This document shows, in pieces, positions 42,533 to 62,388 of a stretch of DNA of 64,000 nucleotides. A program made the position numbers and the translations under genes. Position 1 is the stretch's first letter; the number at the start of each line of letters is the position of its first letter. The notes beneath the pieces were generated by a model. The model ran no database searches. It saw only the letters and a list, made by a program, of their open reading frames with translations, and had not been told where the DNA came from. This DNA is from Nemertoderma westbladi (Eukaryota; Animalia; Xenacoelomorpha): the NCBI GenBank assembly GCA_032718475.1, contig JAUCBJ010007486.1:72244-136243 (forward strand). Direction: 5' to 3'.

Positions 42533-45500
42533 ATGTCTGACACAATGCAAAACCTGTCAGACAGTCTCCTAGATACAACCATCTATGACCCAGATAGGAG
42601 TGCTGAACGTTTGAGACCGAAGTTCAACTCACCTCCTACTGTAAGAAAAGTCATCCTTCCAGTAATAGTATCAGACCCTAGGCTAGTCAAACACCGTAGG
42701 TCTATCATAGGCACTCGGGCTCAAGTCAAGAGGGACCAAGAAGCAGCTGTTAAACAGCAGCAACACGCGAGCCGAGAACTTATTTCTCAGCGGCCCGATA
42801 GCTCCAGTAGTTCAGATACTGTAGAGCTGACACCCGAGCGCGGAGCAAAGATGGCAGATGCGGTTTATTCGGACCCCCTTCTCATTCTTCCTGCAGCCGT
42901 ACTCACTAGGTTATTGATTGCGGTGGAAGAACACCAAATCGATTGGGCGAGAAGTAAGCGATCGACCAAGGATAGTTATGTGGGATACACAAGGGAGGAA
43001 CTGAAATCTATTGTCGAGTCGCAATGGAACTTCCCCGGACCCGGACTCCCGTTTAACTTATCGGAAGCTGCCTGGGAAGACTTACACAGGATGGGAGTGA
43101 CAAAGGACACTAGTGATCCAGCTGTATGGAAGAGGTCGGCAGCAGGATATGTACAGAGATTCTTCAGCTCTTTGGAGCGATTTGAGGAACAACTGTTTCA
43201 ACAACTCCAAGGACCTCAAGAGCAGGGAGAGCTGCTTTATCAAGTTCGAGAAAGAATTCTAAGAATCAGACTAATCTTATCGGCCTTTGAGGAAGCTTCG
43301 AAAAGAAGACAAGACACGTCGTTGCAAGTTGCCGTAAAGACTTGGTTCCAGCGGGTGGGTCTCAAGGTTCAAGGAACGGCCCAGTGGAAATCTCAGTTGG
43401 CTGAGCGCCCAACCCATGGAGAATCAACAGACGCTACCTTTTCTCAAGTGGAAAGCGAAGCGACAGCAGAGAAACCGCAGAAGAGGGACGCTATTGACAT
43501 CTATCTGTCATACTATCAACGATTTCTAGGTGATGAAGAGTTGAGGAGACGGCTGGCTGGACTTCGCCCTAATAGTGAAGGAGCCAAGCTTGTGTTGGAC
43601 GCAATAGATGCGGAAATGTTAGCTGCAAACCAAGCTAAATTTGATGAACGCCTCCGCATCGCTAGAGTCCAAGAAGAACAAGTAAAGAAAAAACGTATAG
43701 AAGACAGAAAGACAGCAGCAGCGGCAGCGGCAGCGGCAGAAGTTGAAAGAAAAGCGGCAGCGGCAGCGGCAGCGGCAGCGGCAGCGGCAGCGGCAGCGGC
43801 AGCGGCAGTGGCAGAGGCAGAAGCGGAAAGAAAGGGGGTAGAAGTGGAAAGAAAGGCGGTAGAAGTGGAACGAAAGGCGGTAGAAGTGGAAAGAAAGGCG
43901 GTAGAAGGGGAAAGAAAAGCGGCAGTGGCAGCGGCAGAAGCGAAAAGAAAAGCAGCAGAGGCAGTGGCAGAAGCAGAACGGAGAGCGTCTGAAGAGACCA
44001 CCCAACTAGAGTTGGAAAATCTTCAAGAGAATCAAGACTACATAAATAAACAGTTAACAGCTAGTCAGATGCAGATGATAAGTTGATCTACTCCCAAAAG
44101 GCAGGGATTTACATCATCTGATGAAGGCGATACCACCGATCCTGAAGGCGGAGGAAATAGATCTCGTCTAAACAGGCGTAGAAGAATGCCCCACCATCAG
44201 AAATTGCCTGATTTGCCCCCAGCTGTGAGAAGGCAACTAGCTAGCACGGACTTAGGTAGTACAGAACCCACAGACCAAATTATTAGAGTAAAAAGACTCC
44301 CTACTATAGTAGATGAGCCTGAAATAATTAGGCCTGTTCTCGAAGCCACCCCCTCTGTGATAGAGACCCCTGTACTTCCAGAACCCAACTCTAAATTCCC
44401 TTTGCACAGCACTAAACTACCTGTGCCCAGCAGAACAGCCCCTGAGACAGCTCCTGTCCTGGACTCCGAGCGAAATATCAATGATTTGTCGCCCATTGTC
44501 CCTCGTCCGCCTGCTACTATGTTGGCGGCTCCCGCTTCGGCGGTCGAGTGGGTGGATGAGGGACGGCGGGGGATGGATCTCCTGCTCGGGCAGATGCAGG
44601 AGACTGTTCAACAGTTCAAGGGCACAGTCAGGGAAAGTAGGTTAGAGTTGCAAGAAGTGCAGCAAAGTATCGCGTTAGAACGCGATAAATTGGTAAATAC
44701 CCAAAGGGGTATACCACCAACCCCGGTAACAATGTGTCAACCTGTTAGGTCTGAAGTATTTCATGCGCCAGGTGTGGAGCCTACACGCATCTATACTGCT
44801 AGTGAAGTAGAAACTCCTGTAGTAAACCCTATTAAGGGTAATTATAAACCTGTTGACAATGATATTCCATATAGACCTAATCATAATCCGAGAAATTTAT
44901 ATACCGATAACTCGATATTAAATAACACGATGGCCCAAGAAAGTTTTACACGTCAAATGGCTAGAACCGAAGCCCGTCAAGCAGTAAAGGTGGGAGAGAT
45001 CGTCAAGTTCAATGGAGATGAGATGAAATGGTTACCTTTTAATGAATATTATAAAGATAACATACAGAACTCTGTGCTATCTAACGGAGAGAAACTTAGA
45101 TTCCTCATCGAGTGCTTGGAAGGATCTCCCAAGTTAATGGCGTTAAAGTTTATTGGACATCCAGATGGATTAAGACAAGTTTGGGATACACTAAACATCA
45201 GGTATGGTAATAGGAATAACATAGCTAGGTATTTGTATGCAAAATTGGTAGCGCCCCGAAAGTTCATTATCAGCGGGATTATAGAGTTTTCCGATGAGAT
45301 TCAGGAGATCTGTAGACAATTAGATTGGCTAGGTAAGTCTCATGAATATCAGAGTTCTATGGTTATTGGAGCTGTAGCATCTACTTTACCCAAGGGTGGA
45401 GTAGGTACACGCTGGGATAAGAAAGTGTTATATATGATGGAACAACAACGACGAGACCCTACCATGGCTGATCTTATGTCATTCTTAGATGGCGAAGTAA

Positions 45501-47307
45501 AATTACAGCTCCTAAAGCAGTCCAGGGAGAAGACACCGGAAAATAAGGTAAGTGAGAAACCCATTTCTAGGAGAAAGGTAACACCAGTGTGTTATACAGA
45601 CGACGGCGAAAGCCAGGCTTCTCAAGAAGAGGACAGCGGGAAAGACACTGAAAGATCTTACTATGTTAACAAAGCGTCTAAAGACGTAAGTAAATTCAAG
45701 TCTCGAAACAATGACAGGAGAGAACAGGTAAGAAAAACTCCTCCTACGTCTCCTAAGAGAATTCACGGAAGAAAGCCTGAGGAAAGAACGAGTGTGCACA
45801 ACGTTACCCAAAGTAAGGTAAGTAACATCAAACCGAAATGTGCGCTGTGCGACGGGCCCCACCGTTTAAGTGTGTGTGATGAATTCCTAAAGAAATCATT
45901 AAAAGATAGACGTGAAGTCATGTGGGATAAGCTGTTGTGTTATAATTGCCTCAGACAAGGACACCAACGACGAACCTGTTACTCCGACGCAAGGTGTGCA
46001 AAGTGCGGCGTGAAACATCATATCTTGTTGCACACTGAATTCGAAAGAAACAGCCCGAGTCAGGTAAATGAGTCCGAACTACATGTCCAATTCAGTGATG
46101 TGAACGACACTGACCAAAGTTCTGAGATGGAAGGATTCTATACGGACGAATTCTCCGACGAAAACAAATCCTGTTACCTAATAAATATCGAGCACTTACG
46201 TATGAGAAGGAAACCGACAATGAGCTCCCCCTAACTACTCCTGACCGACAACCATCTTGGAAAGCACCTACTTCCAACGTAGGAATCCGAGAATTTCCCA
46301 TAGTGCAGTTGAGAGTCCACGGGCCAAACAAAAGCTATATAGTGAACGCCCTCCTTGACTCCGGCAGCACAGGAACATTCATCGACAAAGAACTAGCCGA
46401 AGACATCTTTACTGGACAACCCAAGTTCCGAACTAAGTTAAACATGTCAGGAATTATGCAGGTTTGGAAATCTACAGTAATTGCAGATTATTATGTAGGT
46501 GCATTGTCCACCCCCCAGGATGAACTAGGAGAACACAGCATAAGGTCAGTAAAAATGGTGGCGATAAAGAACTTCGCTACCAGCCAAGTGGAACCTTATA
46601 ACTGGGATGAGGACGATTTCACCCAGCAGCATAAGATACCTAGATTCAATACAGACTATCCTGGAGTGCAAATACTCATCGGCCAAAATGCGCATGAGGC
46701 GCTTGAGACATTGGAGAAACGGCCTGCTCAACCGCAACCACTACAAACCTATGCGGGAAGAACTAGAGTAGGTTGGTACTTCACTGGCCCTTCCCGTAGA
46801 ACTCTCATAGAAAGGTTACCCAAAGAGCGGGTCTACCAGGTAAGTGAATGGGAAGAGGAGAACAGTGAGGTAGACGATACAACTGAGGGAACACCATACT
46901 CCTCAGATAATGACGACATCCACCAACTCTTCGACGAGGAGAAGACCATCGACCTCCTTACGGAAAACGAAACTTGGCAAAACCAGGTGAACCTATGTCA
47001 CCTCATTCATCCAGCTGAACAAGTCGAATACAATGACGAACTGAATGAAGTGATAGATCACTATAACGCGAAGACTCGCGATGAACACGCCGTACGATTC
47101 TTTACTCAAGAGGCTGTAGAGCCCAATTCCTACGATAAGGCCATATTGGTAGAAGAAGAAAGAGCCAAGCAGATCCAGGAGACAACTACACGTTTTCTTA
47201 AAGATCAAGGTAGATATGAAATTGGTCTGCCATTTCGAAAGCGAGAACCTAAATTTATAAACAACCGACCCTTGGCGGAGAAAAGAATTGCGCAACTACA
47301 TCGACGC
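42533..47307 (+). pseudogene. BEL-B gag-protease region, disrupted
   Basis: Collinear with the BEL-A ORF. In-frame TGA at 44084-44086 (CGA in BEL-A), a ~10-bp deletion frameshift near 46186, then interruption by BEL-C. Confidence 0.93.
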
Positions 47308-47759
47308 TGTCATAAAATATATATATTCAAGTAGGGAAATAAAGTTTGTTTTCGTTAATGATTTAATGTTAATGTGCATAGTACAGTAGTTGGCAACAGC
47401 AGGGGTTCATTGACATCAACTCATACATTATATCATTGATATACATACAGTATCGTCTATATTATTAACTATTGTTTGTACAACGCTAGAATTACCTCAT
47501 CGTTTGGAAGACATGCCCCTGCTGTTCGTCCTAATTAAAAGGGTCAATTAGTATTGCTACAATAATAGGAGTATACATAGAGTGTTGGTGCGGTGATGGT
47601 AAAACCAGTTGCTAATTGTCGTTGTAATATGTGTCATTTTTGTAATTAGTTAGTTAATTATTAAATTAGAGAAATATGTAATCATAATATTGTGTTTTTT
47701 TAAACTGTTCATGGGCGGTTCAACAATCAGAAGAATATACATTCATCCCGTTCATGACA
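47308..47759 (+). repeat. 5' LTR of BEL-C
   Basis: No differences seen by eye versus 53878-54329. Confidence 0.97.
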
Positions 47760-47769
47760 TGGCGCCCGA
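47760..47769 (+). promoter_or_regulatory. tRNA primer-binding site of BEL-C (tRNA-Lys-like)
   Basis: TGGCGCCCGA directly after the LTR matches the start of the tRNA-Lys(UUU)-type PBS. Confidence 0.7.
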
Positions 47770-48079
47770 TGTTAAACGGCAGTAATATTCAACTGGGTAA
47801 GTCAAACTTCATTAGGATTACAGAATCACAGTAATTATACTGTGTTAATTCATGTTGCGTTGGTATCTTCTATCTAATTGCAACAACCAAGGACAATATG
47901 AAATTATCGAAATCTGTTAATGCAAATTAGCGTCAACTACAGTAACTTCATAAACGTCTGACTTACTCAATTGTACTGGTACGTTACAGTAAGCACCAGT
48001 ACGACGCAAAACAGGATTGCTTCTGTCGCTTACATATTAATTCACAGGTTCAACACAGGATTTCCCAACATCAGAAAAC

Positions 48080-49612
48080 ATGTCAGAAATAGACGGGGAA
48101 TTAACACAACTCAAACGTTCTCGTGGAATACTACGGGGAAAAGTCACTAGAGCGCAGAAGAGACTGAATACGCAACTTGACGAAGCTGAGAGGACAACAT
48201 TGATGGAGACGTTTAAAGATTTGAATCAACGACTCTTAGAGGCCGATATGCAAATCGGTATACAGCTCGAAGATGACGAAATGGAAAGCGATCTGGACTA
48301 TTCAGATGAGTATCAAACAATAATAAACAATGCAATTGCTTTCTTACGCAAGTCACTACCCACCAATCAGCATCATGCTGGTTATCACTCAAATACCACA
48401 CTCAATGAACCTAGTTTTCAAGGTGTACATAATTCAACAGAATACATGTCCCACTTATCTATAATTCAAAATCAAACAGAAGGGAGAGTTTTAGCACGTT
48501 CAATGCTGTCCAAACTAAAACCCCCTACATTTGGTGGTAATTTGTTGGATTTCAAAGGCTGGCATGAAGCATTTCTCACAGCTATTGATGAAGCACAGGT
48601 GCCTGATGTTATAAAATTTCAGTACCTACGTCAGAGTCTCAAGGGCGAAGCCCTTAAGACTGTTGGAGGGCTAGCAGTAAACGGAACTAATTATTCAATA
48701 GCCATGAAATTATTAACTGAAAGATTTGGCAATGAAAGACAAATTATCAGGGCACACATAGAGCAAATAAGAGCCATTAGAAAAACCAAAACAACGTTAC
48801 GAGAAATTTATGATCATTGTCAATCGCATGCAAGGGCTTTAGAAGCACTAGGTGTTTCAACTGACAAATATGAGCTGACAGTAGTTCCAGATGTGTTAGC
48901 TGCACTTCCAGAGAGAATTGCACTAAGATTTTGTCGTAAAAATAAAGATAAAGTTGAAAACCTTGAATGGATAATGGAACAAATCAAGGGGGAGTTGGAA
49001 GCTCAGGAAATGCTATCCAATACAATAAACCCACCCCATTCAATAGACACTTCGTTGAGCAGTGATGGCCAAAACAGCTATCAACAATCGGTAGAAACCC
49101 CCAATGCACCCTTTCGTGATAAACTTAAGGAAAAACACGTCAACAGACACACATACGGCGCAACAGCTGCTAATTTTGTGGCTAGTGTAACAAATGATGG
49201 AAAGGCTCACGTAAATGCCCAGTCGAGCTCAAGTACAGCAAAATTGGGATCAAAACAAACAATTGTACCACATTGTTTGTTCTGTAGACAAATTCATTAC
49301 TCAGCTGATTGTTCGACAGTAACTGACCCTTTGGAAAGAAAGGAAATACTAAAAGAAAAAGGCCGTTGCTATATATGTTTAAGCAAAGAGCATATGGCAA
49401 ATAAATGCCAATCGATAAAACAATGCAAATTTTGCAACAATCGTTTTCACCATCCTGCAATCTGCCTGAAACGAGGTGTAGGCCCACAACGTCAATCTAC
49501 AGTACTTGTTACTTCAACAGAAACAACCAATACACAACTGGAAGTACCAAAACCTACAAATATTACGTTGTCATATTTATTTTACGGGAAGTGCTCGAAC
49601 GACATTCATTAA
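48080..49612 (+). CDS. BEL-C Gag (510 aa)
   Basis: LKPPTFGG..DF..W...F, KFQYLRQSLKGEA, LLTERFG and three Zn knuckles (CLFC..H...C, CYIC....H....C, CKFC...HH..IC). Confidence 0.92.
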   Translation: MSEIDGELTQLKRSRGILRGKVTRAQKRLNTQLDEAERTTLMETFKDLNQRLLEADMQIGIQLEDDEMESDLDYSDEYQTIINNAIAFLRKSLPTNQHHAGYHSNTTLNEPSFQGVHNSTEYMSHLSIIQNQTEGRVLARSMLSKLKPPTFGGNLLDFKGWHEAFLTAIDEAQVPDVIKFQYLRQSLKGEALKTVGGLAVNGTNYSIAMKLLTERFGNERQIIRAHIEQIRAIRKTKTTLREIYDHCQSHARALEALGVSTDKYELTVVPDVLAALPERIALRFCRKNKDKVENLEWIMEQIKGELEAQEMLSNTINPPHSIDTSLSSDGQNSYQQSVETPNAPFRDKLKEKHVNRHTYGATAANFVASVTNDGKAHVNAQSSSSTAKLGSKQTIVPHCLFCRQIHYSADCSTVTDPLERKEILKEKGRCYICLSKEHMANKCQSIKQCKFCNNRFHHPAICLKRGVGPQRQSTVLVTSTETTNTQLEVPKPTNITLSYLFYGKCSNDIH

Positions 49613-52600
49613 CAGTGATAGGAAGTGAAGTATTGGCACCGCAAGGTTTTGGATCAAGTGCAAAAGCTTCGGAATGTTTCACAATTGTTGAAATAAAATT
49701 ACAGTTAAGGAATTTGGAATTTGGAACAATTAAAGCATTAGTTATAGAAAAGATTTGTGATCCAATCTACAACATGGTTCCACATAACGTTATAAAACAA
49801 AGTAAAACGCTAAGCTCTCTGCAATTAGCAGACGCAACTGTAACCAATGCTGCATTGTTTAAAATCGAGCTTTTAATAGGTGTTGACGAGTATTGGAACA
49901 TTGTTTCAGGTTCCATAATTCGGGGCGCCCAAAACGAGCCGGTGGCCATAGACAGCGCCGTGGGCTGGTTATTATCCGGCCCCGCATATATCCCTGACTA
50001 CGAGGAAACTCTTGTAATCAAATCGAACCAACACCTTTCCCCATCAACCACCTTAACGCTTGAATCGCGGTTGATTGCAAACCAATGTGTTGACATCGGT
50101 GACTCAGTTAAAGATCCTGAGTCACAAATTCTAACTATGTTAAAACTATTCTGGTCCCTAGAGTCAATCGGAATTACAACACTTGGCGAAGAACTCAAAC
50201 CCATAATAACTGACATTAAATTCAAAGACGGAAAGTACGTAGTTCGTTTACCATGGAAGTTGGATCCATTCCAATTACCAGAACACTACCATAGATGCGC
50301 TACTCAACTGAAATCACTCATAACGAAATTGTCAAAAACTGGGTTGTTGATTAGCTACAATGACGTCATTGAGGACCACTTCAGTAAAGGGTATGTTGAG
50401 CTAGTCGATATTACGCAGCCGACTACCAATCCAATTCACTATGTACCTCATCATGGGGTAATAAAAGAAACACGCCAGACAACAAAACTCAGAGTGGTAT
50501 TCAACGCGTCAGCTATAGACACAAAGTACGGCATTAGTTTAAATTCATGTTTAAATTACGGTCCTAATTTCTTACCATTATTGTTTCAAGTATTAGTACG
50601 TCTTAGAACCAACCGCATTGCAATAGTCGCTGACATTGAAGCAGCATTTATGCAATGCGTAATACATCCTGACGATAGAGATATGCTACGTTTTCTTTGG
50701 GTTAAAGACATAAATGACATCGATGTAAATAACCCAAAATTGCAAGCATATCGCTATACGCTGGCGATGTTTGGACTCTCGCCATCACCAGATATTTTAT
50801 TTTCTATTGTCAGGAAACATTTACAAAGTAAATTAGATACTGCCAACGAAAACAAACGTATTGTAATTGAAAAACTATTGCGGGATATGTATGTAGATGA
50901 CTTTGCGTCTGGTGCAGACACTGTGTCGTCTGGTCTTCTCTTGTATGAGAATGCAAAGCAATTGATGTTAGAGGGTGGATTTAATTTAAGAAAATGGCTT
51001 ACAAATTCTGTCGAGCTACAACAAATTATAGATCAATTTGAAAAACCCAAAATCGTAAGTTTAAAAACAAATTCTGTACCAATATTATCAGAGGAAGACC
51101 AGACGTACGCAAAGGAGTCATTGTGTTTATCAACACCACCTAGCGGTGAAACAAGGATTTTGGGACAAGTGTGGGATATAAGTAAGGATTACTTTGGGTA
51201 TAACCTTGACCACGTCATATCCTTTGTTAAGAATCTAAAACCAACGAAAAGGGCTATATTGCAACTAACGGCTCGGATCTACGATCCATTAGGGCTTATA
51301 TCTCCCTTTTTAACGCCCTTAAGAATCGTATTTAGGGAATTAGCTAACAGTAAGGTAGACTGGGACGAACCACTACCTACTCATTTATTGAGCAAATGGG
51401 AATCATGGTTAAACAGTTTAGAAATTTTAAATAGCATTACAGTACCTCGATGTATTCTAGGTAATACAGACGATAACACTGTAGAAATACATGCTTTCTC
51501 AGACGCAAGCAAACAATTATACGCATGTGCCATCTACTCTAGAGTAGAACACTCGGACGGAACTTACACTACAAACTTACTATGTAGTAAAGTTAAACTG
51601 GCACCTAAACAAAAACAATCAGTACCACGGTTAGAATTACTTGGCGCACTAATACTGGTAAGACTAGTACTGTTAGTGTATCAAGGTTTGGTACTACAAA
51701 TAACACGTTCAGTATTTTGGACCGATGCATTAGACGTACTGTATTGGATACGACCAACAAATAATACTCACAAACAATTTGTACACAATAGAGTACAGGA
51801 AATCCGTGACGTAACACAGAAATTAGGAGCAGAATGGAGGTGGTGTCCAGGGCCGTGTAATCCAGCGGACATTCCAACAAGGACAATGGCACCAGACAAA
51901 TTATTAAATAACAAACTATGGTATGAGGGTCCAGACTTTATATCGGGGGAGGAATCTGGTTGGCCAGAGTCACCAGTGATTACTGAGGCTCAAGTATCCA
52001 AGTGTGCTCTGTTAGATATAAAGTCCACCCTCATAATGACAACGACAATTAAGACAATCAATACAGACGATACAGGATTATCTCAGATAATTAATGTAAA
52101 TAATTTCAGTACAAAAAGGGACGTACAACACAGAATAGCTTGGATTCTACGGTTTGTAGAAAATATTAAAGCAAAACGTTTACACAAAGACCCCGTGTTA
52201 TTACCATACTTAACAGCCAAGGAACTACATTTAGCCGAAATTAAAATAATTCTAGATTCACAACGTGTAAACTATTCTCGGGAATTGTCTTATCTTCGTG
52301 ATAAATCAACTCAGTGTCCTAACGTTGTTAAACAATTAAATCTTGTGTTAGATGAATTAGGTATGATCAGATGTCAGGGTAGAATAATCAATGATACTAT
52401 CCCATTCCATACCAGAAATCCTATTCTTCTTGCACCAGGTGACCATTTTACAAAACTCGTCATATTAAACTCACACGAGCGCGTTTCACATTCCCGAGTG
52501 AGAGACACACTAGTAGAGGTTCGTGAGAGATTCTGGATACCATCGGTGAGACGGAAAATTCAACAAATTTTGTCTTCGTGTGTCATTTGTAAAAGGTTTC

Positions 52601-53676
52601 AAGGAAAACCCTATACAATGCCAGCAATCAGCCCCTTGCCAGTTTCTAGAACGATTGAAACGCGCGGCCCCTTTGATCATTGCGGAGTCGATCTTTGTGG
52701 ACCACTTCATACAGTTGCCAAACCAACCGAGACCGAGACTGAGACAATACAACCAACAGAGAAGGCGTGGATTGTTATGTTTACGTGTGCTGTAATAAGA
52801 GCCGTTCATTTGGAAGTAGTAACGTCTTTATCAGCGGTCGCTTTCATTAACGCATTTCACAGATTCATAGCCAGAAGAGGAATACCGAGTATTATGTTTA
52901 GCGATAATGCTACAAACTTTAAGCGCAGTGCCAAGGAGCTAAGAGCGTACCGAATATTCTTGACAGATCCTGAGGTAGTCAGGATTTTTGGAGATCATAA
53001 TATTACCTGGGAAAACAATATTGCAAACAATCCAGCAGCGTATGGATTTATAGAACGTTTAATTGGCACTTGCAAATCCGGAATTCGTAAGTTAATAGGA
53101 CGAGCTGTCTTATCACTTGACGAGTTACATACTGTTGCGCTTTCGGTAGAAGCATCAGTAAATAGCAGACCAATCACATATGTTTACAGTAAGTTAGATG
53201 ACGATGTACAGCCTCTCACCCCGAGTCACTTTCTTGTAGGAAAACGGCTCTGTGCAATACCAGATTTATCAGATAAAGGGATTCTACCAAACCCTGAATC
53301 TAAATCTAAATCGGCAAGAAGAATGATACTTGATAGGGTTAAATATCAAGAGGCAGCGAAAAATTCAGTGTGGAAGTTGTGGCGTACAGATTATTTGAGA
53401 GAGTTACGTTCTTCTCACATTAGTAACAACGTAGCACCCAAATCAGACATCATCCCGAAGGTAGGCGCTATGTGTCTATTACATAACGAGTCTATTCCCC
53501 GTTGCATGTGGAAGTTGTGTAGGATAGATGAATTAATTGTTTCAAGGGACGGCCGTGTGCGGTCTGCGAGAATTTCAATAGCGCCCAGAAAGAAGGAAGC
53601 GAGATCACTCGTTAAATCCATACTACAATTATATCCATTAGAGGTATCTACTACAAATACACCACAAATAGATTAA
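49405..53676 (+). CDS. BEL-C Pol (partial protease, RT, RNase H, integrase); the listed start is not a true initiation site
   Basis: RT (KLRVVFNAS, ADIEAAFMQ, YVDD), RNase H (FSDAS, RLELLG, WTDA, NPAD), integrase HHCC and D,D,E (VDLCGP, SDNATNF, FIERL), C-terminal W..GR-type domain. Confidence 0.92.
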   Translation: MPIDKTMQILQQSFSPSCNLPETRCRPTTSIYSTCYFNRNNQYTTGSTKTYKYYVVIFILREVLERHSLTVIGSEVLAPQGFGSSAKASECFTIVEIKLQLRNLEFGTIKALVIEKICDPIYNMVPHNVIKQSKTLSSLQLADATVTNAALFKIELLIGVDEYWNIVSGSIIRGAQNEPVAIDSAVGWLLSGPAYIPDYEETLVIKSNQHLSPSTTLTLESRLIANQCVDIGDSVKDPESQILTMLKLFWSLESIGITTLGEELKPIITDIKFKDGKYVVRLPWKLDPFQLPEHYHRCATQLKSLITKLSKTGLLISYNDVIEDHFSKGYVELVDITQPTTNPIHYVPHHGVIKETRQTTKLRVVFNASAIDTKYGISLNSCLNYGPNFLPLLFQVLVRLRTNRIAIVADIEAAFMQCVIHPDDRDMLRFLWVKDINDIDVNNPKLQAYRYTLAMFGLSPSPDILFSIVRKHLQSKLDTANENKRIVIEKLLRDMYVDDFASGADTVSSGLLLYENAKQLMLEGGFNLRKWLTNSVELQQIIDQFEKPKIVSLKTNSVPILSEEDQTYAKESLCLSTPPSGETRILGQVWDISKDYFGYNLDHVISFVKNLKPTKRAILQLTARIYDPLGLISPFLTPLRIVFRELANSKVDWDEPLPTHLLSKWESWLNSLEILNSITVPRCILGNTDDNTVEIHAFSDASKQLYACAIYSRVEHSDGTYTTNLLCSKVKLAPKQKQSVPRLELLGALILVRLVLLVYQGLVLQITRSVFWTDALDVLYWIRPTNNTHKQFVHNRVQEIRDVTQKLGAEWRWCPGPCNPADIPTRTMAPDKLLNNKLWYEGPDFISGEESGWPESPVITEAQVSKCALLDIKSTLIMTTTIKTINTDDTGLSQIINVNNFSTKRDVQHRIAWILRFVENIKAKRLHKDPVLLPYLTAKELHLAEIKIILDSQRVNYSRELSYLRDKSTQCPNVVKQLNLVLDELGMIRCQGRIINDTIPFHTRNPILLAPGDHFTKLVILNSHERVSHSRVRDTLVEVRERFWIPSVRRKIQQILSSCVICKRFQGKPYTMPAISPLPVSRTIETRGPFDHCGVDLCGPLHTVAKPTETETETIQPTEKAWIVMFTCAVIRAVHLEVVTSLSAVAFINAFHRFIARRGIPSIMFSDNATNFKRSAKELRAYRIFLTDPEVVRIFGDHNITWENNIANNPAAYGFIERLIGTCKSGIRKLIGRAVLSLDELHTVALSVEASVNSRPITYVYSKLDDDVQPLTPSHFLVGKRLCAIPDLSDKGILPNPESKSKSARRMILDRVKYQEAAKNSVWKLWRTDYLRELRSSHISNNVAPKSDIIPKVGAMCLLHNESIPRCMWKLCRIDELIVSRDGRVRSARISIAPRKKEARSLVKSILQLYPLEVSTTNTPQID

Positions 53677-53877
53677 AATAGTCATAAAGAAATACAATAC
53701 GAACATTCTTCATACTTTATCATAATTGAAAATTATAATGTGCAATTAATTACACTAAACAATATAACATATTGTTTACTGTATATTAGTCATTTTTTGA
53801 AATTTTTTAAATGCAATAATGTATAACCCCCTACGTGGTGAAGGTTATGATTTGAAACTCTTAGTTTCAAGGGGGAG

Positions 53878-54329
53878 TGTCATAAAATATATATATTCAA
53901 GTAGGGAAATAAAGTTTGTTTTCGTTAATGATTTAATGTTAATGTGCATAGTACAGTAGTTGGCAACAGCAGGGGTTCATTGACATCAACTCATACATTA
54001 TATCATTGATATACATACAGTATCGTCTATATTATTAACTATTGTTTGTACAACGCTAGAATTACCTCATCGTTTGGAAGACATGCCCCTGCTGTTCGTC
54101 CTAATTAAAAGGGTCAATTAGTATTGCTACAATAATAGGAGTATACATAGAGTGTTGGTGCGGTGATGGTAAAACCAGTTGCTAATTGTCGTTGTAATAT
54201 GTGTCATTTTTGTAATTAGTTAGTTAATTATTAAATTAGAGAAATATGTAATCATAATATTGTGTTTTTTTAAACTGTTCATGGGCGGTTCAACAATCAG
54301 AAGAATATACATTCATCCCGTTCATGACA
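53878..54329 (+). repeat. 3' LTR of BEL-C
   Basis: Direct repeat of 47308-47759, preceded by the PPT. Confidence 0.97.
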
Positions 54330-54898
54330 GACGCCTTACGGCAAATGCTTCAGCTAAGGAAATGTACAAGACTCAGTTGAAGAAATTTATTGACAAGAGA
54401 TATGCGGAGCGAGTACCGGAAGAAACACCCATAACTGAGAGAACGTACTATCTAACACATCATTACGTTCCCAAACCCGGTAAACCCAACGAAGTCCGGG
54501 TAGTATTTGATGGCTCCGCCCTCTACATGGGCCAATCCCTCAATTCCGAGTTGTTGCCAGAACCCAACTTACTCCAATCCTTGTTGGGAATACTCTTAAG
54601 ATTACGACAATATTCAATCGCGGATTCAGATCTTCCACGTAAGCGGTGGCAGACAGGTCGCATCATCGAGACTCATATCTCGGATGACGGTTTAGTGCGA
54701 TCGGTAGAACTCGTCGTCATGCGATGTAACTTTAAGAAACCGGGAATTGTCTTCGAGACGCAGCAGCTCAATCGCCCAGTTGGTCGTTTTTGTTTACTGG
54801 AAAGAGACAGAGAACTCTCCGGAAACTATGGAAGGCAAGATACTCTTCCCACGACCACCTCCCTAATCCAACAAACATCTAGGGATTCCCCAACGTGA
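54330..54898 (+). pseudogene. Remnant of BEL-B pol: start of RT fused in frame to the integrase C-terminal domain
   Basis: RRLTAN...RVVFDGS...LRLRQYSIA matches BEL-A, then jumps at ~54620 to DSDLPRKRWQTGRIIETHISDDGLVRSVEL. Most of RT, RNase H and the integrase core are deleted. Confidence 0.9.
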
Positions 54899-55450
54899 CA
54901 GCGTCTGGAGTGGGTGTGTGACTATATTATTTTATATTTGTTTTTATTATTTTATATTTATGTATGTACTATTATGTAATTTTATTATAATCGTTTTCTT
55001 TAATTTTATTTAGTAGAATGTTATTTTAGCGATTATTTAGTAGATTAGTGCAATATATATTAGCGTTTATTACTTAATTACTTATATATTATATATTTAG
55101 TGCGACGGCGAGAAATAATTATTTTTCTCTTTCCTTACTGTCCGTATTACATTATAAATACGTGACTACAGTAAGATGAAATGTCCGTACTTATTAAAGT
55201 ACAATAAAGCTCCTACTATATTCAAGTATTATTGGTAAGTAGAGTATTAGGAATGCAAAATTCAGATCCTCGTGTCTCGGCTAAACCAAGCTCTGGGTAG
55301 ACCTTGGAAATGACTTGCCTCTTCTCACTGACATTGCTTCGTGCGATATTGCTCTCATACCGTATATTAAATAATACATATAGTAGCGTGATGTCCTTTT
55401 AACAGTACGTAAAACGCAAAATAAATCTGTTAAACCCTTTGACCATCTGT

Positions 55451-55801
55451 AATTCTAGTCGATTAAGATATCGCGGCACCCACCGATATACTTGAAAGAC
55501 AAAATTCTAGAATCAGTGGTTAACGTCCCCAGACAAGTTCTGGAATAAATTGGTGCCCATCTTAAATATTAACCATTAATATTTATAAAATCTGTCAAAC
55601 AGATACAATAGAGTAACTACGTATAAGTTAACTCTAGAAAATCTATAAATTAAAATCTGTCAAACTTAGATCCTTTAAAATTCTAGTCAATTAAGATATC
55701 GTAGCACTTACTGATACTCTTAAAAGGACAAATTTCCTAGAATCAAGGATCCCAGTCCCCAGACATGTTCTGGAATAAAATTGTGTCTATTTTAATATTA
55801 A
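55451..55801 (+). repeat. Diverged ~120-bp direct duplication in the BEL-B pol/cargo spacer
   Basis: AATTCTAGTC(G/A)ATTAAGATATCG...GTCCCCAGACA(A/T)GTTCTGGAATAAA occurs at 55451 and 55679. Confidence 0.8.
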
Positions 55802-56099
55802 ATAATAAAATTTACGGGAATAAATTTAAATTCATTTCTTTTAATGAATTTGATAAATTGTCATTTTTATACAATTTATAACATTCCCAAAATTCCATTA
55901 ATTAATAGATCATGGGAGCGGAGATTCACCCTATTAAGTGTATTAGTGTGCGAGAATCTCCAATATATAGTCAATAGCCGATAAAATTCATAAAATTATG
56001 TATAAGTGAGATATTGACAATTAAAGAATTACTATTAAATAGCATCCCAGATCTGTATGCATGAGAATTACCCTAATTCTACTGGTAGCTTTCCATAAT

Positions 56100-56113
56100 G
56101 TCACCATAGCAAC
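56100..56113. promoter_or_regulatory. RFX X-box-like motif ~490 bp upstream of the cargo ORF
   Basis: GTCACCATAGCAAC fits GTNRCC-AT-RGYAAC. Confidence 0.4.
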
Positions 56114-56602
56114 AACCACGCTAGAATTAGAAGCGAGTTAAAAGAACAATAGAAAGCTTGCCCCATTGAATAGCATAAGGAATAAATAGCACACTGCTAG
56201 TATCCAAGGATACATAATAATAACGTGGCATTCTGGAAGGCACTTGACTAACGGACAAATGGCCCAAATGTGTACAATTTGTGACAGTTGTGTGGAATTT
56301 GTGCGTTTATAGGTGAATGTTACTACTAAAGTGTGTTTACAGTAGCGAGTCGCAATTGTGAAAGTAGCCCTAACTCTGCAGTAAGAACCTGAAGTAAATC
56401 TAAGCCTTTGGGACGGACAGTGGAGTGACTTGTGCCGGTTATCGTTGTCATTGTGTAGCTACTACGTTGGCGAAAAACACAGCGATGACGGTACATCGGC
56501 GCTGAGGATCTTGCACTGTCCGGGGGCCGAGAGGGGTAGGCAGCGACGCCCGCTAGCCTAATTATAAACTCATTATAATATTGATAAACTCATATAGCAG
56601 CT

Positions 56603-59600
56603 ATGACTGAGTTGATAGAAGATGATCTTGGTATCAGGGAGCGATATACTCTACCTTTACAAGCGTTTGTTGATAGCTTGATATGCGGCGACGCTAGTCC
56701 AACTACTACGGAGGACGATGGTCGTTATATCGAACCGCCAATGTCCCAGGAGCGACTTACGCGTGAATTGGACTATAGAAAATTCACCGCTCGCTATACA
56801 CATCGTAATGGTACGTATATGGACTTCTTAACTACCGGCCATCATATCGATTTACACGATACGGATGATGTAGACACTGAAAGGGAAATGGTTTTATTTA
56901 AATATCATACCCAGCGGAGTCGGAACGATAAACCGAGAATAGAACACGAGAATTCTATTCGGAACCGACTCGAAAGAGAAGACGTTGAAGAGCCGGATAA
57001 ATGCAGCGACTTCAACGATTATCTGGAATTCCTGAGAGAAATATATCTCAATATTGCCAGTCAACAAAATCTAGAAACTCGATATCCTCAAGGTATACAT
57101 CATGACCCTATGATAGAACTCAAACGGCTCTATTTCACTATGATGTATCTTACCGCCGATCGACCGCTACCTGTCGTCCCAGATAGCTTGGAACAGATGG
57201 AGGAATATTGTAAAACTGGAGAACGATCACCCGCGTTTCCCCTGCAGGATGTGCTTCTTTGGTATTACTGCGACGAATGCCCTAGACCCAATCAGCAAAC
57301 GGAAAGACATAAACATCCGCGGAGACGTTGCGCTAAACACAGTTTTACACGATATACTTATGGGAGTTTCGAGCGAAACCTGTTCGACGTATCACCTACG
57401 CTCGCTCAACTCAAACGATCCTTAAATAAACCAATGATCAGAGTTCCGGAATACTCGGTCAGACCTACTCATTTCTTAGTGAGACCTCAAACACTTGATC
57501 CTAATAGTATAACAGATCCCCCTGAACTGTACTCACTATTTAAAGATCTTGTGTTACCCGAACAATTAATCGGTGGCACTCCGGTAGTGGGTTCGCTAGA
57601 TATTCGCCCATCCTATCTAGCCGGATTAGGACGCGGTCATCTAATATCGCCGTTCAACCCATACAACCGTCCAGGTTTAACCCTGATACAACCCGTTACC
57701 GAAGTCAAAGAGAGCGTTGTACGAAACGCGTTAGACGCTATTCGGCAGAAGATCGGAAAAGGAACTTACGATTGTTTAGAGAAACGCAAATTGCAGCAAC
57801 AAGTCTAAGCGGTGAAAGAATTAGCTTTACCCCAGTTCGATCGAGAAATGCAGAACCTCGAGGAAGACATCGAACGTGGACGAACCTATTCTCTACAAGA
57901 GTTCCTAGACGAGCGTTTACAACAACAAGCGGAGGAAAATCAGCTCGAGGAGAAACACATAGAAATGGATGAGAGAGAAGAAGCAGCTTTAGCCCAGCCA
58001 GAAGCTCAAATCCTTATGACTGATCTCTATTCTAAAACCATCATCCATCCTTCGATGGTTCCCCATTTCGGAGACAAGCTCTTCGCACCGGCACAACCTC
58101 AACCGGTTGATATCAACCTAAGATCTCGAGATCTTATCGCTGACGCTCCTATGTTGCAACGTCCGCCAATCGAGGCCGCTCGTGTCGACGGTATACTCGT
58201 TGAACCTCCGGACAATAGAGCGGATCTTGTCCGTCGTATGGTACACGAGGTCAACATACGCGCTAGACCTTTACCGAACTCATTTTATGGGATCAAAGAT
58301 CACTCTTATTATGTCAATCTAACTCAATATTACATGGTAAAACCGGAAGATCCTACACATAGTCTAAGGTTTCTACCACTAATAAATCCTCTCGTTCTTG
58401 TCGAACTCGAACAACTGCAGAAACATCTGGATCAGTTAGTGAAAGTAAAGTCATTCCGAAAACCCTACAATGTTTCCAGAATAGAGAAAGATACAATACC
58501 TCCGTATAATCTCGATGGATTTATCAAAACTCGATTAGTCCACTGGAATCTCGACGTGTTATTCGAGGAGGAAAGAATGCAACGATATGGAGATGTAGAA
58601 ACATATACTTCACAGTATTTGAAGTATAGAGATCTACCTAATGCTAGCGAATGCGCCACCTTGTGGCATCCAGTGGGAATGACTCTAGAAAACGCCACTA
58701 AAGAGTGGAACGAGACTCTTAACGTTATCGAGATGTATGGAGTTGTCACTTACGATAACGAAGGTAGCGTTCCGGTTGGAGAACTGGGAACTACGCGCAT
58801 GATACATATACGAGGACTAGCTGGTTCTACCCACGTATTTACTCGAGCGTGTTCCGATGTGATTGATTATTCTTTTGAGACCCTTACCGAGATACAAAAG
58901 AAACTCCGACATGGACAATTCGAACTCGCGCAGCGTTACGTCACTGACACCGAGCGCAAACCGGCCATGGGTATCGATGGATCGATGTTACCCCAGCCCG
59001 TGCTCGAGATGTTGTTTAACGAAAGAATCCTTAAAATCGGCTCAGCTGTTTATGAAGATCTCCAAAACGACTTTAGGAACATGGAGAATATCCCATATCC
59101 CTTTGTAGATACTCAGCTGATTGCTCCCTGGGCAGAAGGCCGAGGTTTCTTCCGCACTATGTATGCCAATACACCCAGCGGCATCACTAAAGTACAACGA
59201 ACCTCCATCGGACATCTTGCCTTTCAAGAATACGGATGGAATTTCAAGGTTGGAAATCCTATCAACTACCAACAAGTATATGGAGATCATTATTCTCGAT
59301 TATACTTTGACGGAGCATTGACCGCACCTGGCGCCGTGTATAGCTTTATGAGTGTTCCACTTCGTCCCTCCTTACCTATATACACGATCTTTGAAAACGC
59401 CGCACTTGCCGGTTGGCTAGCCGATGTGTGCAGTCGTACTATACGCGCCCATCCCTTAATACTTGGAACCAAACTCACCAAGCTAGATGAACACAATAAA
59501 TTCATCCGCTTCGAATGTTTCAGGCGCTTTCTGACTCCGTTCCGTAACGTTGATAGTCAGTTCAAGGACCGCGCTCTGACCAAGCTCAGCCTAAGAGACT

Positions 59601-60856
59601 CAGCTGCTGAGAAGTTAGACAGCGCTGGATTCGCCATTTTCAAGGACGTTTGTATACAGAACTTACATTCATCTGTTATACAAAGACCTCGAATACCCAC
59701 GGGTTATTCTATCGTGGAAGTTCAGACAGTGGGTTCGCTTGAGGAGACAGCCGCACCTACCTCAGCTATGCAATTGGAAGACGAACCAATATGCTTAGAA
59801 TCTGAGGAGATTCAGCCTACAGCGCCCCGGAGCAGCGACAACGACTACGTCTTAGAATGGTATCAAGGTCCACAATCTCTCACCGCATACGATTATCGGC
59901 ACGCCAACTATGTTTCTCGAAAACGTTGCCGATTATGTGCATCGAGAGATCATTTCACCCCCATGGACTCAGACGTGCCCTGCTCCTATTTCCATGAACA
60001 ACCGGTGATGGAGATCTATTGTGCGTATTGCAGACTCAATAACTTGCACATTTTCGCAGTCTGCCCCCAATTTATGACTCAATGCCATCATTGTCAACTT
60101 AAAGGACATGCCAGTTTTGATTGCCCTTTTAACCGCGATCTGGAAAGCGTAGATGAGATGATTACCCTGCGCTACATTCGAGCTTGGGTAGCGAATGCGG
60201 ATTTACATTGTGAGTCACGCCATCGCTATTACCCTGGACGCGCCTACGAAGGAGTTTATGCGTTCCATCCTTATCTATTCGCGTCTGTTGAACAAAAATC
60301 ACGCACACCAAGTTACGAACTAATGAAGCATGATGGTGAGTGTATTTCCACCAAATTTGTTCGTAAATATCTCAGGAACATCAATCCTAACGATATTAAT
60401 TCATACAACTTGATCAATTTCATACGTCAAGACCCGGAGTATGGCGATTTGTTCATCAACTCGCATCCAGAGTTACAGGAAGTACATCGACGGCCCTACG
60501 AATATCGAGCCCAAGAACGCGAGTTGGAAAGAACCATTAAACCGAGGAAGTTTCTCACCACTCACGGTCCACCTACCGCTATCGTTCAGACGACTCATCA
60601 GGGACCAGTAGGAGCTGCTGTCCTAAAACGCGCTCTAAAAGCCGTTAGACCTCGCTCCACTGAGGTTGATATCGATCAACCAGGTACCTCGACCGGCGGA
60701 TACACCGACCGTAATCCCAAACCTTCCGATGCAATTGTATTGCACCCTTCACCCAGGAGTTATAGCCCTCCTAGTAAAGTGGCTCGCCCCAAAGAGAAAA
60801 GGACTCTTGCTAGCCTCAAAAAACTGCGTAAACGCCATCCTCGCAAGAAAGACTAA
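56603..60856 (+). CDS. BEL-B cargo frame (~1,417 codons, one internal TAA at 57806-57808): DEDDy-type 3'-5' exonuclease plus CCHC zinc knuckles
   Basis: ORFs 56603-57808 and 57812-60856 share one frame. Exo I VVTYDNE, Exo II LPQPVLEMLFNERILKIGSAVYED, FVDTQLIA, SIGHLAFQEYG, Exo III PL...PIYTIFE (~58700-59420). Knuckles CRLC....H, CAYC.....H....C, CHHCQLKGHASFDC (~59927-60124). Basic C-terminus. Confidence 0.75.
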
Positions 60857-60934
60857 CTGTTTAGAGTATTCTTATATTTTAGAAACTGTGATTTTTTATA
60901 TTTTATAGAATTAAAACCCATTTTCTGGGAGCGG

Positions 60935-62128
60935 TGTAAAGGCTTTTGCGGATTTAGCTGGTTATTTTCCCCGCAAAGTACTCTGTAGGTGTTTTAGCGG
61001 ACATAAAAAGCCGTTTCCTTACTGTACAGGTGTTTTAGTGGACATAAAAAGCCATTTCTTCTGTATGTGTACTTTAGCAGACATAACTAGCAATTTTATG
61101 CCGCAATGCACCAAAATACTCTTAATACAGTGTAGTTCAGATGACGACATCTATCAGCTGATATCTGATATGTCGACGTGTAGCTTTTGGCTTTCTTTGT
61201 TCAGGCTCATTCACTTGACCAATCAGAGCGATTTTCATTTTATTTGCACAGAGGCCTCCGGAAAATCGCGCAATGCATTATGGTCTTTGTTTACCTTTTT
61301 TCCTGAGCCCCGAACATCGGCTGTGGAATTATTCTGTGTTTCAGACTTTAGCCAAACATTAGAATGGCTTTGATCATAGAAATGTATAACTGTTATTCTA
61401 TCTACCACTTATCATATCATAACTATACATACCTTTCACCGCATTATTTTACTGCTATTTACTGTCGGTTATTAATTGTATCAGTTGATGGAATATTGTT
61501 ATATTTGGAGAATATCGATAAATAATCAGAAACCCCCAATCTTCTTGATATACTGAAGGTTAGAGAGACCGGTTACATATAGCAATTGCGACTTACCGGT
61601 ACATTATAGTGGATTTGGAGTGAATTGAATGCTATTTCATAGAACCTACATGTGTCAGTTTCTGTTCTCCTTATATATGATTAAAATTAGTGAAGGTCGG
61701 CAGATCAGTGTGCAGCAGTGTGCGGTAGTGTGCATGAGTGTGATAGATAACAAAGCATCTCCTAAAGAATGCGCTTTATACGTGAATCAATAGCCATCCC
61801 GTTGTGTTTAGTGTAAGTAATAACTCTGTTTACATACTTAGAGCGCCACGTCCTAAAGGAACTGTTAATATTTCCCGAAAGTGAATAATATTTGTCAGAG
61901 ATTATATATTAACGATCAATCGAGTAATACAGTAGGCCTACACCGCAATAAGGTCAGAGCATCCGAATCCAGTCTCCCTTAACCGTGGGTGAATGGTCGC
62001 GCATAGGCTGGCTTCGGCTAATGTAGCTTTATGTGTATCAAATACTTGTTATAGGCTAAAGTCGATTTATAACCTAGAAGACACCTAAATTGGCAGGTTA
62101 AACTGCTAAAGGTCTAAAAGCGCGAACA
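60935..62128 (+). repeat. 3' LTR of BEL-B (1194 bp)
   Basis: Direct repeat of 39412-40599, followed by TSD ATTTC. Confidence 0.96.
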
Positions 62129-62388
62129 ATTTCTGTTGTCCCGCTAGCCGACCACCACCTAGACTTGTCCCCACAGGAGTTCCGGGACGCCCTGGCGATC
62201 CGCTATGGTCGCCCCTTTGGGGCAGTTCCGAGCAGGTGCGATGGGTGTGGGGCCGCCTTTGATTTAACCCACGGTTTAAATTGTAAAAAAGGCGGTCTTG
62301 TCATCCAACGCCATAACGAACTGCGGGATGTTTTAGGGGATCTCACCGTGCTCGCATTTGGACCGCGTAAAGTGGTGCGTGAGCCGAT
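62129..62388 (+). mobile_element. Continuation of the CRE-like element (CCHC + RHN region before the RLE nuclease)
   Basis: DLSPQEFRDALAIRYG...CDGCG.....H...CKKGG....RHNELRD...VVREP; similarity stops before the PD..D/E.K nuclease motif. Confidence 0.88.

Follow-up and report, generated by a model that had tools for sequence, protein, structure and literature searches.

The carrier element and its third gene

The window, a stretch of 64,000 nucleotides of a Nemertoderma westbladi contig, holds a BEL/Pao retrotransposon with a large cargo gene in the position where env would be expected. The features of this carrier element and its cargo are listed in order along the window.

39407..39411 (left) and 62129..62133 (right), target-site duplication ATTTC
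39412..40599, + strand, carrier 5' LTR of 1188 bp (TGT...ACA)
39863..39873, + strand, candidate self-primer, 11 nt of the LTR that can pair with the primer-binding position
40600..40610, + strand, primer-binding position, with no TGG tRNA site
40616..40640, + strand, 9-bp leader hairpin just after the primer site, predicted also in the sister copy
42533..46234, + strand, carrier gag with DUF1759 and two knuckles, broken by a stop codon (44084-44086)
46126..47307, + strand, protease and start of pol, in a frame that differs from gag in the carrier copy
47308..54329, + strand, nested, unrelated BEL/Pao element (LTRs 453 and 452 bp with 0 mismatches, duplication GACGC)
54335..54898, + strand, pol remnant in which the RT start meets the DUF5641 end near 54620
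54899..56602, + strand, AT-rich spacer upstream of the cargo (1704 bp, 34% GC)
56603..60856, + strand, cargo gene of 1417 codons in the env position (ATG 56603, stop 60856)
57269..57340, + strand, N-terminal Cys/His cluster of the cargo (CxxC...H.H....C..H), no family match
57806..57808, + strand, in-frame stop TAA, private to this copy
58730..59420, + strand, RNase D/DEDDy-like domain
59927..60124, + strand, three Cys/His knuckles (Cx2Cx4Hx9C, Cx2Cx5Hx4C, Cx2Cx4Hx4C)
60785..60853, + strand, basic, NLS-like tail
60925..60934, + strand, short purine-rich stretch just ahead of the 3' LTR
60935..62128, + strand, 3' LTR (1194 bp)

The carrier is placed in BEL/Pao by its Gag DUF1759, Pao-type pol, DUF5641 end and LTRs within the range of 0.2-1.2 kb. 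Domain matches were obtained in the carrier for DUF1759 (E 4e-11) and DUF5641 (E 3.5e-6), and for Peptidase_A17 (E 3.2e-36) in a sister copy that ends at 33911 in the window, retains an intact Pao-type pol and is ~80% identical to the carrier in protein. The carrier copy itself is defective: gag has a stop, the frame changes between gag and protease near 46190 (the sister copy has one frame), a second BEL element is nested within it, and a deletion from the RT start to the integrase end has removed the RT core, RNase H and integrase. The nested element has a TGG tRNA-type primer site and no cargo gene. The two carrier LTRs align with 1168 matches, 20 mismatches and 1 gap, the non-coding leader is ~1.9 kb long, and the carrier measures 15,690 bp after subtraction of the nested insert, with most of pol gone. 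An earlier note on this DNA had described a 4.25-kb exonuclease cargo inside BEL LTRs; the placement stands, and the defective state of the copy was left unstated there.

The cargo frame lies on the sense strand between the carrier LTRs, and its 3' end (60856) is 78 bp short of the 3' LTR (60935), as had been claimed. What had been read as a single open frame is interrupted in this copy by the TAA at 57806-57808, which was missed and which divides it into parts of 401 and 1015 codons. The AT-rich spacer is presumed to be the location of a cargo promoter or splice acceptor. The ordered motifs, the CDEC cluster, the three knuckles and the basic tail were all recovered where they had been described, with starts at 57269 (CDEC), 58751 (YDNE), 58988 (LPQPVLE), 59027 (ILKIG), 59102 (FVDTQ) and 59204 (SIGHLA), and at 59927, 60020 and 60083 for the knuckles, only the last of which is the canonical CX2CX4HX4C. 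One spacing has to be corrected, in that the proposed PL-x5-Y pattern has no match and the true ExoIII is PL-x6-Y-x3-E, where x6 is the RNase D register. The domain residues are the ExoI Asp 58754 and Glu 58760, the ExoII Asp 59057, the DTQ at 59108, and the ExoIII Tyr 59381 and Glu 59393. The knuckles match zf-CCHC_3 at E 5.7e-4, below the gathering score, and in PDB sequence searches they match nucleocapsid and Air2 only, the remaining matches being at chance level.

The highest 19-residue Kyte-Doolittle mean of the cargo is only 1.07, so the protein has no transmembrane segment, and its N-terminus is acidic and by inspection lacks a signal core. This agrees with the earlier statement that the gene has neither a signal peptide nor a transmembrane segment and is not env. 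The env identity was rejected because the cargo has no hydrophobic segment. No homologue or family match was found for the first 700 codons.

Evidence for an RNase D/DEDDy-type domain

Profile searches point to RNase D. The cargo matches the NCBIfam model TIGR01388 at E 1.7e-4, with 21 bits compared with a whole-protein family cut-off of 298.95, and a custom RNase D profile gives the exonuclease region 23.0 bits, compared with 5.2 for the best of 1000 shuffles (544 of which received any score). In hhalign the probability is 79-89% over 41-46 columns of the ExoII region, and the custom profile and hhalign together place the ExoII Asp and the DTQ strand that follows it as in DEDDy proteins. In a blind search of 301 genomes, a two-sequence profile of the cargo and P0001, the single homologue found, had matches at E <=0.1 in 49, and the 30 best loci were all RNase D genes (30/30). 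The nearest named clusters in the ESM Atlas are PF01612, as leads only. The RNase D/DEDDy-like domain of the earlier note is thus recovered by profile search, and the description of the cargo as an RNase D/DEDDy-type domain plus zinc knuckles is supported at the sequence level over the ~46 residues of the ExoII-DTQ region, to which the profile support is confined.

The other motifs were placed with the help of P0001. The YDNE of the cargo corresponds to SIDVE in P0001 and to the DTE of RNase D, giving the ExoI D-x-E; in direct alignment of the cargo to RNase D, ExoI is misplaced, and its position is reached through P0001, across an insertion of ~35 residues. ExoIII reads Y-x3-E in both the cargo and P0001, compared with D at the last position in 29/29 RNase D sequences, so the earlier observation that the last catalytic Asp appears as Glu is correct. 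This Glu may cripple catalysis. Since P0001 has it too, it is not decay, and no replacement of it reaches at least 75% of the family depth in run X1.

P0001 is ~30% identical to the cargo and shares with it the exonuclease with three knuckles, the four acidic positions, the Tyr and a basic C-terminal run. Its global alignment to RNase D has ExoI, ExoII, DTQ and ExoIII all in register, and it scores 11.9 bits for PF01612 (cut-off 23.6). The first ESM match of P0001, a lead only, is a Euglenozoan PF01612+CCHC cluster at 0.86, which is plausibly the TbRND family. In a full HMMER search, 1.84 billion representatives yielded a single match, and the two-sequence profile found P0001 alone among 7989 candidates. 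Word-based searches returned no homologue of residues 250-800 of the 1015-codon part among 6730 candidates and none of the exonuclease region among 426. Scans of metagenome and viral contigs gave no relative, tblastn of P0001 found none in phages, and the PHROGs search gave chance-level matches only.

Other searches were negative within their scope. The Pfam scan for PF01612 gave no match in the cargo, short bacterial PF01612 proteins did not match it, and PDB sequence searches returned no solved DEDDy structure and, at E 10, no TbRND-like chain. The Rrp6-HRDC type was rejected because HRDC was not found, with a profile built from the HRDC regions of 29 RNase D sequences scoring -2.3 and -1.4 bits and no Pfam HRDC match.

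Family copies, selection and the self-primer

Copies of the family were studied through public contigs of at least 80% identity in runs X1, X3, X4 and X5, the last of which may be RNA. All four runs (4/4) have such contigs (59,941, 18,256, 669 and 350, respectively), and depth extends across the cargo in 30/30 bins in X1, X3 and X4 and in 29 in X5; summed contig depths were excluded as copy numbers. Many diverged copies are represented along the cargo gene. Among the best-supported sites listed (the top 40 rows in a list of 2044 and the top 40 in one of 107), 40/49 segregating sites are synonymous, compared with ~34% expected for transitions (p 8e-12). The sites private to this copy are synonymous in 1/13 cases, which differs from the segregating sites among the 62 in-frame sites listed (Fisher p 1.5e-6). 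Within the exonuclease region 11/13 of the segregating sites listed are synonymous, and within the knuckles 7/7. This pattern of substitutions shows that the cargo is maintained by purifying selection across a multi-copy family, and the one-off capture without purifying selection that the earlier note had named as fatal to its claim is not what the diverged copies show.

At codon 57806 nearly all depth differs from TAA (63, 40 and 7 contigs in X1, X3 and X4). Because the family lacks this stop, a split into two genes and a programmed read-through were both rejected. The GC3 of the cargo (0.42) equals that of the carrier gag/pol (0.42-0.44), which fits long residence; the nested element has 0.31-0.34 and a DUF5578 frame 0.54. 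Recent capture of a host gene was rejected on the selection across copies, the gag/pol-like GC3 and the single intronless frame. None of the contigs listed reaches from the cargo into pol or an LTR; for the other copies, linkage is deduced from the unbroken cover by short contigs. Contigs that skip most of the cargo gene are also present in the family.

The self-complementary primer site mentioned in the earlier note holds up. Pairing of 11 nt within the carrier has a chance of 0.0022 in 5000 Markov LTRs, and in the sister copy 4/11 positions have changed, with 4/4 compensated at the equivalent LTR place (chance 0.001). Cer7 has a self-encoded tRNA-like primer; here there is no sign of one, since neither a tRNA gene nor a credible match to Rfam was found in the element.

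Possible roles and known systems

The reading we prefer, with confidence a little short of even, is that the cargo is an element-encoded, knuckle-guided 3'-5' exoribonuclease directed against host RNA surveillance. It would be built like TbRND, the mitochondrial RNase D of Trypanosoma brucei, in which the exonuclease is joined to four CCHC fingers required for the trimming of guide RNAs (PMC7797062). The cargo would have a subgenomic RNA of its own, made behind the 1.7-kb spacer, and its two-metal site would still be functional. By analogy with TbRND, the knuckles would hold single-stranded RNA ends and pass them to the active site, and the basic tail would direct the protein to the nucleus. 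We infer that the substrates would be host small guide RNAs or the tailed RNA ends used by the host for silencing or degrading the element. The protein would act in trans, with derivatives lacking the gene riding along; free riders on a trans-acting suppressor should weaken the selection on it, which counts against counter-defence. More doubtful is the wider proposal of a giant self-priming BEL/Pao lineage whose TbRND-like D-E-D-E trimmer, of an enzyme class spread among mobile elements, would destroy piRNA/siRNA guides or mature its own 11-nt primer.

It is rather unlikely that the protein serves instead as a replication helper that matures the self-primer, trimming the single-stranded 3' overhang left by a cut in the looped transcript until it reaches the 11-bp duplex, where RT could then start. 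The compensated pairing of the self-primer is real, RNase D-type enzymes work on the 3' ends of structured RNAs, and the knuckles resemble retroviral nucleocapsid. However, the cut in Tf1 self-priming is made by the RNase H of RT, as a study cited in PMC4600332 reports, and is not known to involve an extra nuclease, and the available text on Juno and Vesta does not mention priming (PMC5408684). The basic tail also suits the nucleus more than a cytoplasmic particle, and since DEDDy cargo recurs in unrelated mobile elements (Juno, Vesta, Athena and Dada), it is not necessarily tied to a single mechanism of priming. The protein could also be an adaptor that binds RNA, in the manner of EXD1, Maelstrom, Egalitarian or a Rev-like exporter; it would keep the DEDDy fold with little or no activity and protect, export or localise the long RNA, a reading that we regard as improbable to a similar degree. 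The ExoIII Glu in both known members fits such a role, as do the basic tail and the ~1.9 kb leader and 1.7 kb spacer, which could hold binding sites, and inactive RNA-binding DEDD derivatives are known (PMC5408684, in the part available). The retention of four acids and the Tyr at ~30% identity nevertheless suits a working metal site more than a pseudo-enzyme.

That coincidence accounts for part of the motif match, or that the fold is a different one in a conserved accessory protein with another job, is quite unlikely. Significant profile support covers 41-46 columns only, AlphaFold pLDDT is 29.5 and 34.2 (each from a single sequence only), and no Pfam or PDB match reaches threshold; against this, NCBIfam, the shuffle-controlled custom profile, the blind genome search and ESM features agree on one family, and P0001 has all motifs in order. 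A proofreading exonuclease for the RT of an oversized genome, comparable to nidovirus ExoN, is very improbable, and most errors of the retro cycle could come from host RNA polymerase II. The carrier, at 15,690 bp with most of pol missing, does exceed the 4.2-10 kb family range, and ExoN offers a precedent (PMC7968707); planarian gypsy elements of >30 kb, however, have no exonuclease named in the accessible part of their description. Proofreading is the weakest of the roles proposed in the earlier note: the cargo is a gene apart from pol, it carries knuckles, and the profile closest to it is that of an RNase.

DEDDy third genes in rotifer retrotransposons are already known. The addition here is purifying selection on a DEDDy cargo in a multi-copy family of another superfamily, the rotifer cases having no proof of selection or activity. 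The preferred reading, with small RNAs as the target, would make the cargo an element-encoded counter-defence enzyme in animals. The knuckles suggest a mode of RNA choice, and the self-priming signal is a second candidate substrate; primer trimming would mean one more step in reverse transcription that does not depend on tRNA. In both cases a two-domain protein and simple RNA substrates make it possible to test what cargo nucleases do.

The BEL/Pao carrier is unlike Juno and Vesta of bdelloid rotifers, which form Ty3/gypsy-like clades, and the likeness of their cargo is one of described features. The precedent named in the earlier note is sound: Juno, Vesta and Athena/Terminon carry a DEDDy ORF3 (Rodriguez et al. 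2017, PMC5408684). As far as the available text goes, this ORF3 is likewise a non-env third gene downstream of pol, for a putative RNase D-like DEDDy exonuclease with one Asp-to-Glu change and no transmembrane segment, and some rotifer DEDDy ORF3 proteins carry a Cys-His-Cys motif (PMC5408684). The cargo differs in its motif order (D-E-D-E, compared with DEED), its 1417 codons, its three C-terminal knuckles and its long N-terminus with no family match, and in its purifying selection, where the part of the rotifer paper available gives no significant departure from neutrality within a genome (PMC5408684). Alignments in PMC5408684 and PMC3706591 bear on kinship with the cargo domain. Dada DNA transposons also carry DEDDy cargo, which the authors of that work interpret as processing DNA ends. 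Malik et al. (2000) reportedly described an accessory domain resembling RNase D in the Cer elements of nematodes.

TbRND is an architectural model and not a shown homologue. Like the cargo, it has tandem CCHC knuckles behind its RNase D-type domain, where HRDC would otherwise stand, and it differs in being cellular, ~375 residues long and equipped with four knuckles (PMC7797062). The earlier note did not recognise an architecture of this kind; exonuclease plus CCHC does have this cellular precedent. No exonuclease gene of a BEL/Pao element and no D-E-D-E-plus-knuckle case was found in the searchable literature (Repbase lying outside the search), although a prior annotation may exist, and the word exonuclease has 0 occurrences in PMC3118150, PMC2774666 and PMC13524379.

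Bacterial RNase D (TIGR01388) and Rrp6/EXOSC10 give the best profile match in ExoII-DTQ and share the motif register through ExoIII; unlike them, the cargo has no HRDC, has Glu at ExoIII and has insertions between motifs. The Belpaoviridae are described as elements of 4.2-10 kb with a host-tRNA primer and, where present, an env-like third gene (PMC8742986). The carrier resembles this family (Semotivirus) in its ~1.2 kb LTRs, Gag DUF1759 with knuckles, protease, Pao-type pol and third-gene position, and departs from its profile in a length of >15.6 kb, a self-complementary primer site and a nuclease-like third gene. In pairing its primer site with its own 5' LTR it is like the chromoviruses Tf1 and Tj1, whose primer site is complementary to a segment of their own 5' LTR; unlike the BEL/Pao carrier, these belong to the Ty3/gypsy class and have no accessory nuclease known in the available text (PMC4600332).

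The carrier element and its surroundings

The cargo is a real, selected, non-env gene in the env position of a defective retrotransposon (the carrier, 39412-62128). Its LTRs (39412-40599 and 60935-62128) show 1168 matches, 20 mismatches and 1 gap in self-comparison, with TGT...ACA ends and an ATTTC target duplication. By domain content the carrier belongs to BEL/Pao, since its Gag matches DUF1759 (E 4e-11), its pol end matches DUF5641 (E 3.5e-6), and a Pao domain (E 3.2e-36) is found in a sister copy at 24287-33911. The sister copy has gag-pol in one frame and its protein is ~80% identical to that of the carrier; it stops at 33911 and so gives no information on the cargo. In the carrier copy, gag contains a stop, the frame changes, and a deletion in pol has fused the RT start directly to the integrase end near 54620. 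A nested BEL element at 47308-54329, with 0 mismatches between its LTRs, a TGG tRNA-type primer site and no cargo, is a young insertion. Without this insert the carrier spans 15,690 bp, which exceeds the 4.2-10 kb given in the ICTV profile of Belpaoviridae (PMC8742986).

Immediately downstream of the carrier's 5' LTR, 11 bases (40600-40610) contain no tRNA site and pair with LTR positions 39863-39873 (chance 0.0022). The corresponding bases of the sister copy (25515-25525) carry four differences and are a perfect complement of 24755-24765, the equivalent place in its LTR (chance 0.001), so that the changes are compensated in 4/4 cases. A 9-bp hairpin follows the primer position in both. This covariation is good support for a putative tRNA-independent priming. 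The arrangement is similar to Tf1/Tj1 self-priming, where the primer site is likewise complementary to part of the element's own 5' LTR (PMC4600332).

Several other features accompany these elements. Upstream of DUF1759, Gag of both BEL copies carries a very long N-terminal extension with alanine/glutamate/lysine-rich repeats (42533-44086 and 27660-29100). In the nested element, gag and pol occupy overlapping frames, and public contigs of the carrier family run on at 54330 without this element. The segment 54905-55210, which directly follows the pol stop, has a purine-rich run with TGTG, followed by an AT-rich tract that includes TATAAAT (55153) and AATAAA (55203), and could be the relic of an internal LTR or promoter upstream of the cargo. 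The spacer upstream of the cargo holds an imperfect 160-bp duplication (55423-55585 and 55653-55814, 77% identical). The carrier itself sits within a degraded GC-rich element (36841-39406 and 62134-62400). The frame to the right of its 3' LTR has no match in a Pfam search and contains a CxxC...H..C..H-like motif of a kind known from non-LTR elements with a restriction-like endonuclease. Large tandem arrays at 1-12700 and 13200-18000, built from units of 63 bp and 22 bp and showing strong GC skew, hold long open frames that are a by-product of the repeats. One further frame, uninterrupted and matched over its full length, is probably a host gene or exon:
20939-22261, minus strand, DUF5578 frame (E 9e-117)

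A family gene under purifying selection

The earlier note described one sense frame of 4.25 kb at 56603-60856, ending 78 bp before the LTR. Position and distance hold, but the frame is interrupted: the six-frame listing gives two same-phase frames, 56588-57808 and 57809-60856, split by a single TAA at 57806-57808, which is codon 402 of the 1417 counted from the ATG at 56603. The motifs named there are all present in the same order, with ExoIII, the last exonuclease motif, spaced instead as PL-x6-Y-x3-E. Its view that the product is not an envelope protein is borne out, because hydropathy peaks at a mean of 1.07 over 19 residues. GC3 of the cargo is 0.42, like that of carrier gag and pol (0.42-0.44) and unlike that of the nested element (0.31-0.34) or of the DUF5578 frame (0.54).

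The window contains a single copy of the cargo. Of seven public runs listed, 5, from 4 studies, contain all or part of the stretch; the top one could be the run from which the window derives, and one bears a second organism label. In four runs, 59,941, 18,256, 669 and 350 contigs were placed on 53900-62300 at 80% identity, most of those in the two large runs being 90-99% alike to the window. Depth, which is not a copy number, extends over 30, 30, 30 and 29 of 30 bins, and the cargo is not limited to this copy. The 12 insertions or deletions with the best support (145 more lie beyond these) are all outside the cargo frame; among the contigs listed, none bridges the cargo to an LTR or to pol. 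Across 57770-59420 at a 75% threshold, essentially all depth at the stop codon differs from the window (63, 40 and 7 contigs in three runs). The stop is therefore private to the window's copy; in the family the frame stays open at that codon. Contigs joining across 56971-59776 (two runs), 57954-60507 and 57965-60694 skip most of the cargo, which points to family derivatives without most of it.

Selection across family copies, a check proposed in the earlier note, was assessed on 62 distinct in-frame sites, the stop site being left out: 29 from the best 40 of 2044 rows over 53900-62300 and 33 more from the best 40 of 107 rows over 57770-59420. Segregating sites are synonymous in 40/49 cases, where random transitions would give 34% (p 8e-12), while only 1/13 sites private to the window copy is synonymous (Fisher p 1.5e-6). 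At these best-supported sites, the family gene is under purifying selection and the window copy is decaying neutrally. Synonymous sites clearly prevail in the exonuclease region (11/13) and the knuckles (7/7), and before the stop the signal is thin (3/5).

An RNase D-like domain

A Pfam search of the cargo gives no exonuclease match, and NCBIfam matches it to RNase D (TIGR01388, E 1.7e-4, 45 residues). As a lead, residues 270-600 of the long cargo part lie, by their ESM Atlas features, beside PF01612 clusters (0.92; 50% of members carry the family). One match, P0001 (E 1.4e-5), came from a scan of 1.84 billion representatives; it is an unnamed, single-member protein of 648 aa from an ENA contig of 9449 bp. 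It is 30% identical to the cargo domain over 150 residues and, like the cargo, carries three CCHC knuckles and ends in a basic stretch. Against an RNase D profile of 29 domains picked by Pfam model alone, the cargo scores 23.0 bits and P0001 11.5, the best of 1000 shuffles reaching 5.2; hhalign gives 79% for the cargo, 26% for P0001 and 89% for both together. Run blind over 301 proteobacterial genomes, a profile of the two found matches at E 0.1 or better in 49 of them; its exonuclease part was used in 46/51 matches listed, and the best 30 loci are RNase D genes (30/30). In global alignment P0001 coincides with RNase D at ExoI (D, E), ExoII (D), DTQ and ExoIII (Y). The cargo Y-x3-E after PL keeps the register of P0001, through which alone the cargo ExoI is placed, ~35 residues further upstream.

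These comparisons suggest that the domain very probably has a DEDDy-type fold. Another fold is improbable. A profile from 21 short PF01612 proteins gives no match, no HRDC is found after the domain, and two single-sequence AlphaFold models were of low confidence (pLDDT 29.5 and 34.2). RNase D has Asp at ExoIII in 29/29 domains, whereas P0001 and the cargo have Glu, the substitution the earlier note had seen. In run X1, all places of the change types able to turn this Glu into Asp are among the rows shown and lie elsewhere, so the Glu is not private to the window copy; a family minority with Asp is possible, and 25 bases of the compared stretch lie beyond the site. In the 'ED' motif of the earlier note, the Glu is a private change of the window copy and the following Asp has no listed change. 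The domain is probably catalytically active. An inactive RNA adaptor, with the departure at ExoIII in its favor and the conserved remaining motifs against it, is unlikely.

Proposed function and known systems

The product is probably a knuckle-guided 3'-5' exoribonuclease, because its nearest profile is an RNase, it bears knuckles, which resemble nucleocapsid and Air2 fingers, and its design recalls that of TbRND, the Trypanosoma brucei mitochondrial RNase D. Its candidate target would be host surveillance, in the form of small guide RNAs or tailed ends. DEDDy-type exonuclease domains were also taken up by Juno, Vesta and Athena (PMC5408684, in the part consulted) and by Dada DNA transposons, for which DNA-end processing was proposed by the authors. 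Host surveillance is tentatively favored, at somewhat under even chances, because such domains occur in elements with very different replication, the tail of both the cargo protein and P0001 is basic, and there are derivatives lacking the gene. Trimming of the self-primer, which would suit the priming proposed for the carrier, is unlikely. Proofreading is very improbable; viral ExoN offers precedents for proofreading and for immune evasion (PMC7968707, relevant text).

Nematode Cer elements reportedly have an RNase D-like accessory domain. Literature searches found no exonuclease gene in BEL/Pao; the word 'exonuclease' is absent from the consulted text of three BEL surveys (PMC13524379, PMC2774666, PMC3118150), and env is the only concern of the relevant text of the Atlas virus preprint. 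The precedent named in the earlier note is in print: DEDDy third genes are published for rotifer LTR elements (PMC5408684) and Terminons, with a DEED motif and, in the text consulted, selection and activity not demonstrated (PMC5408684, PMC6431247, PMC5718144). The two-part design has its counterpart in TbRND, which likewise joins an exonuclease to CCHC fingers; as described in the relevant text, it trims guide-RNA tails and needs its fingers for activity (PMC7797062).
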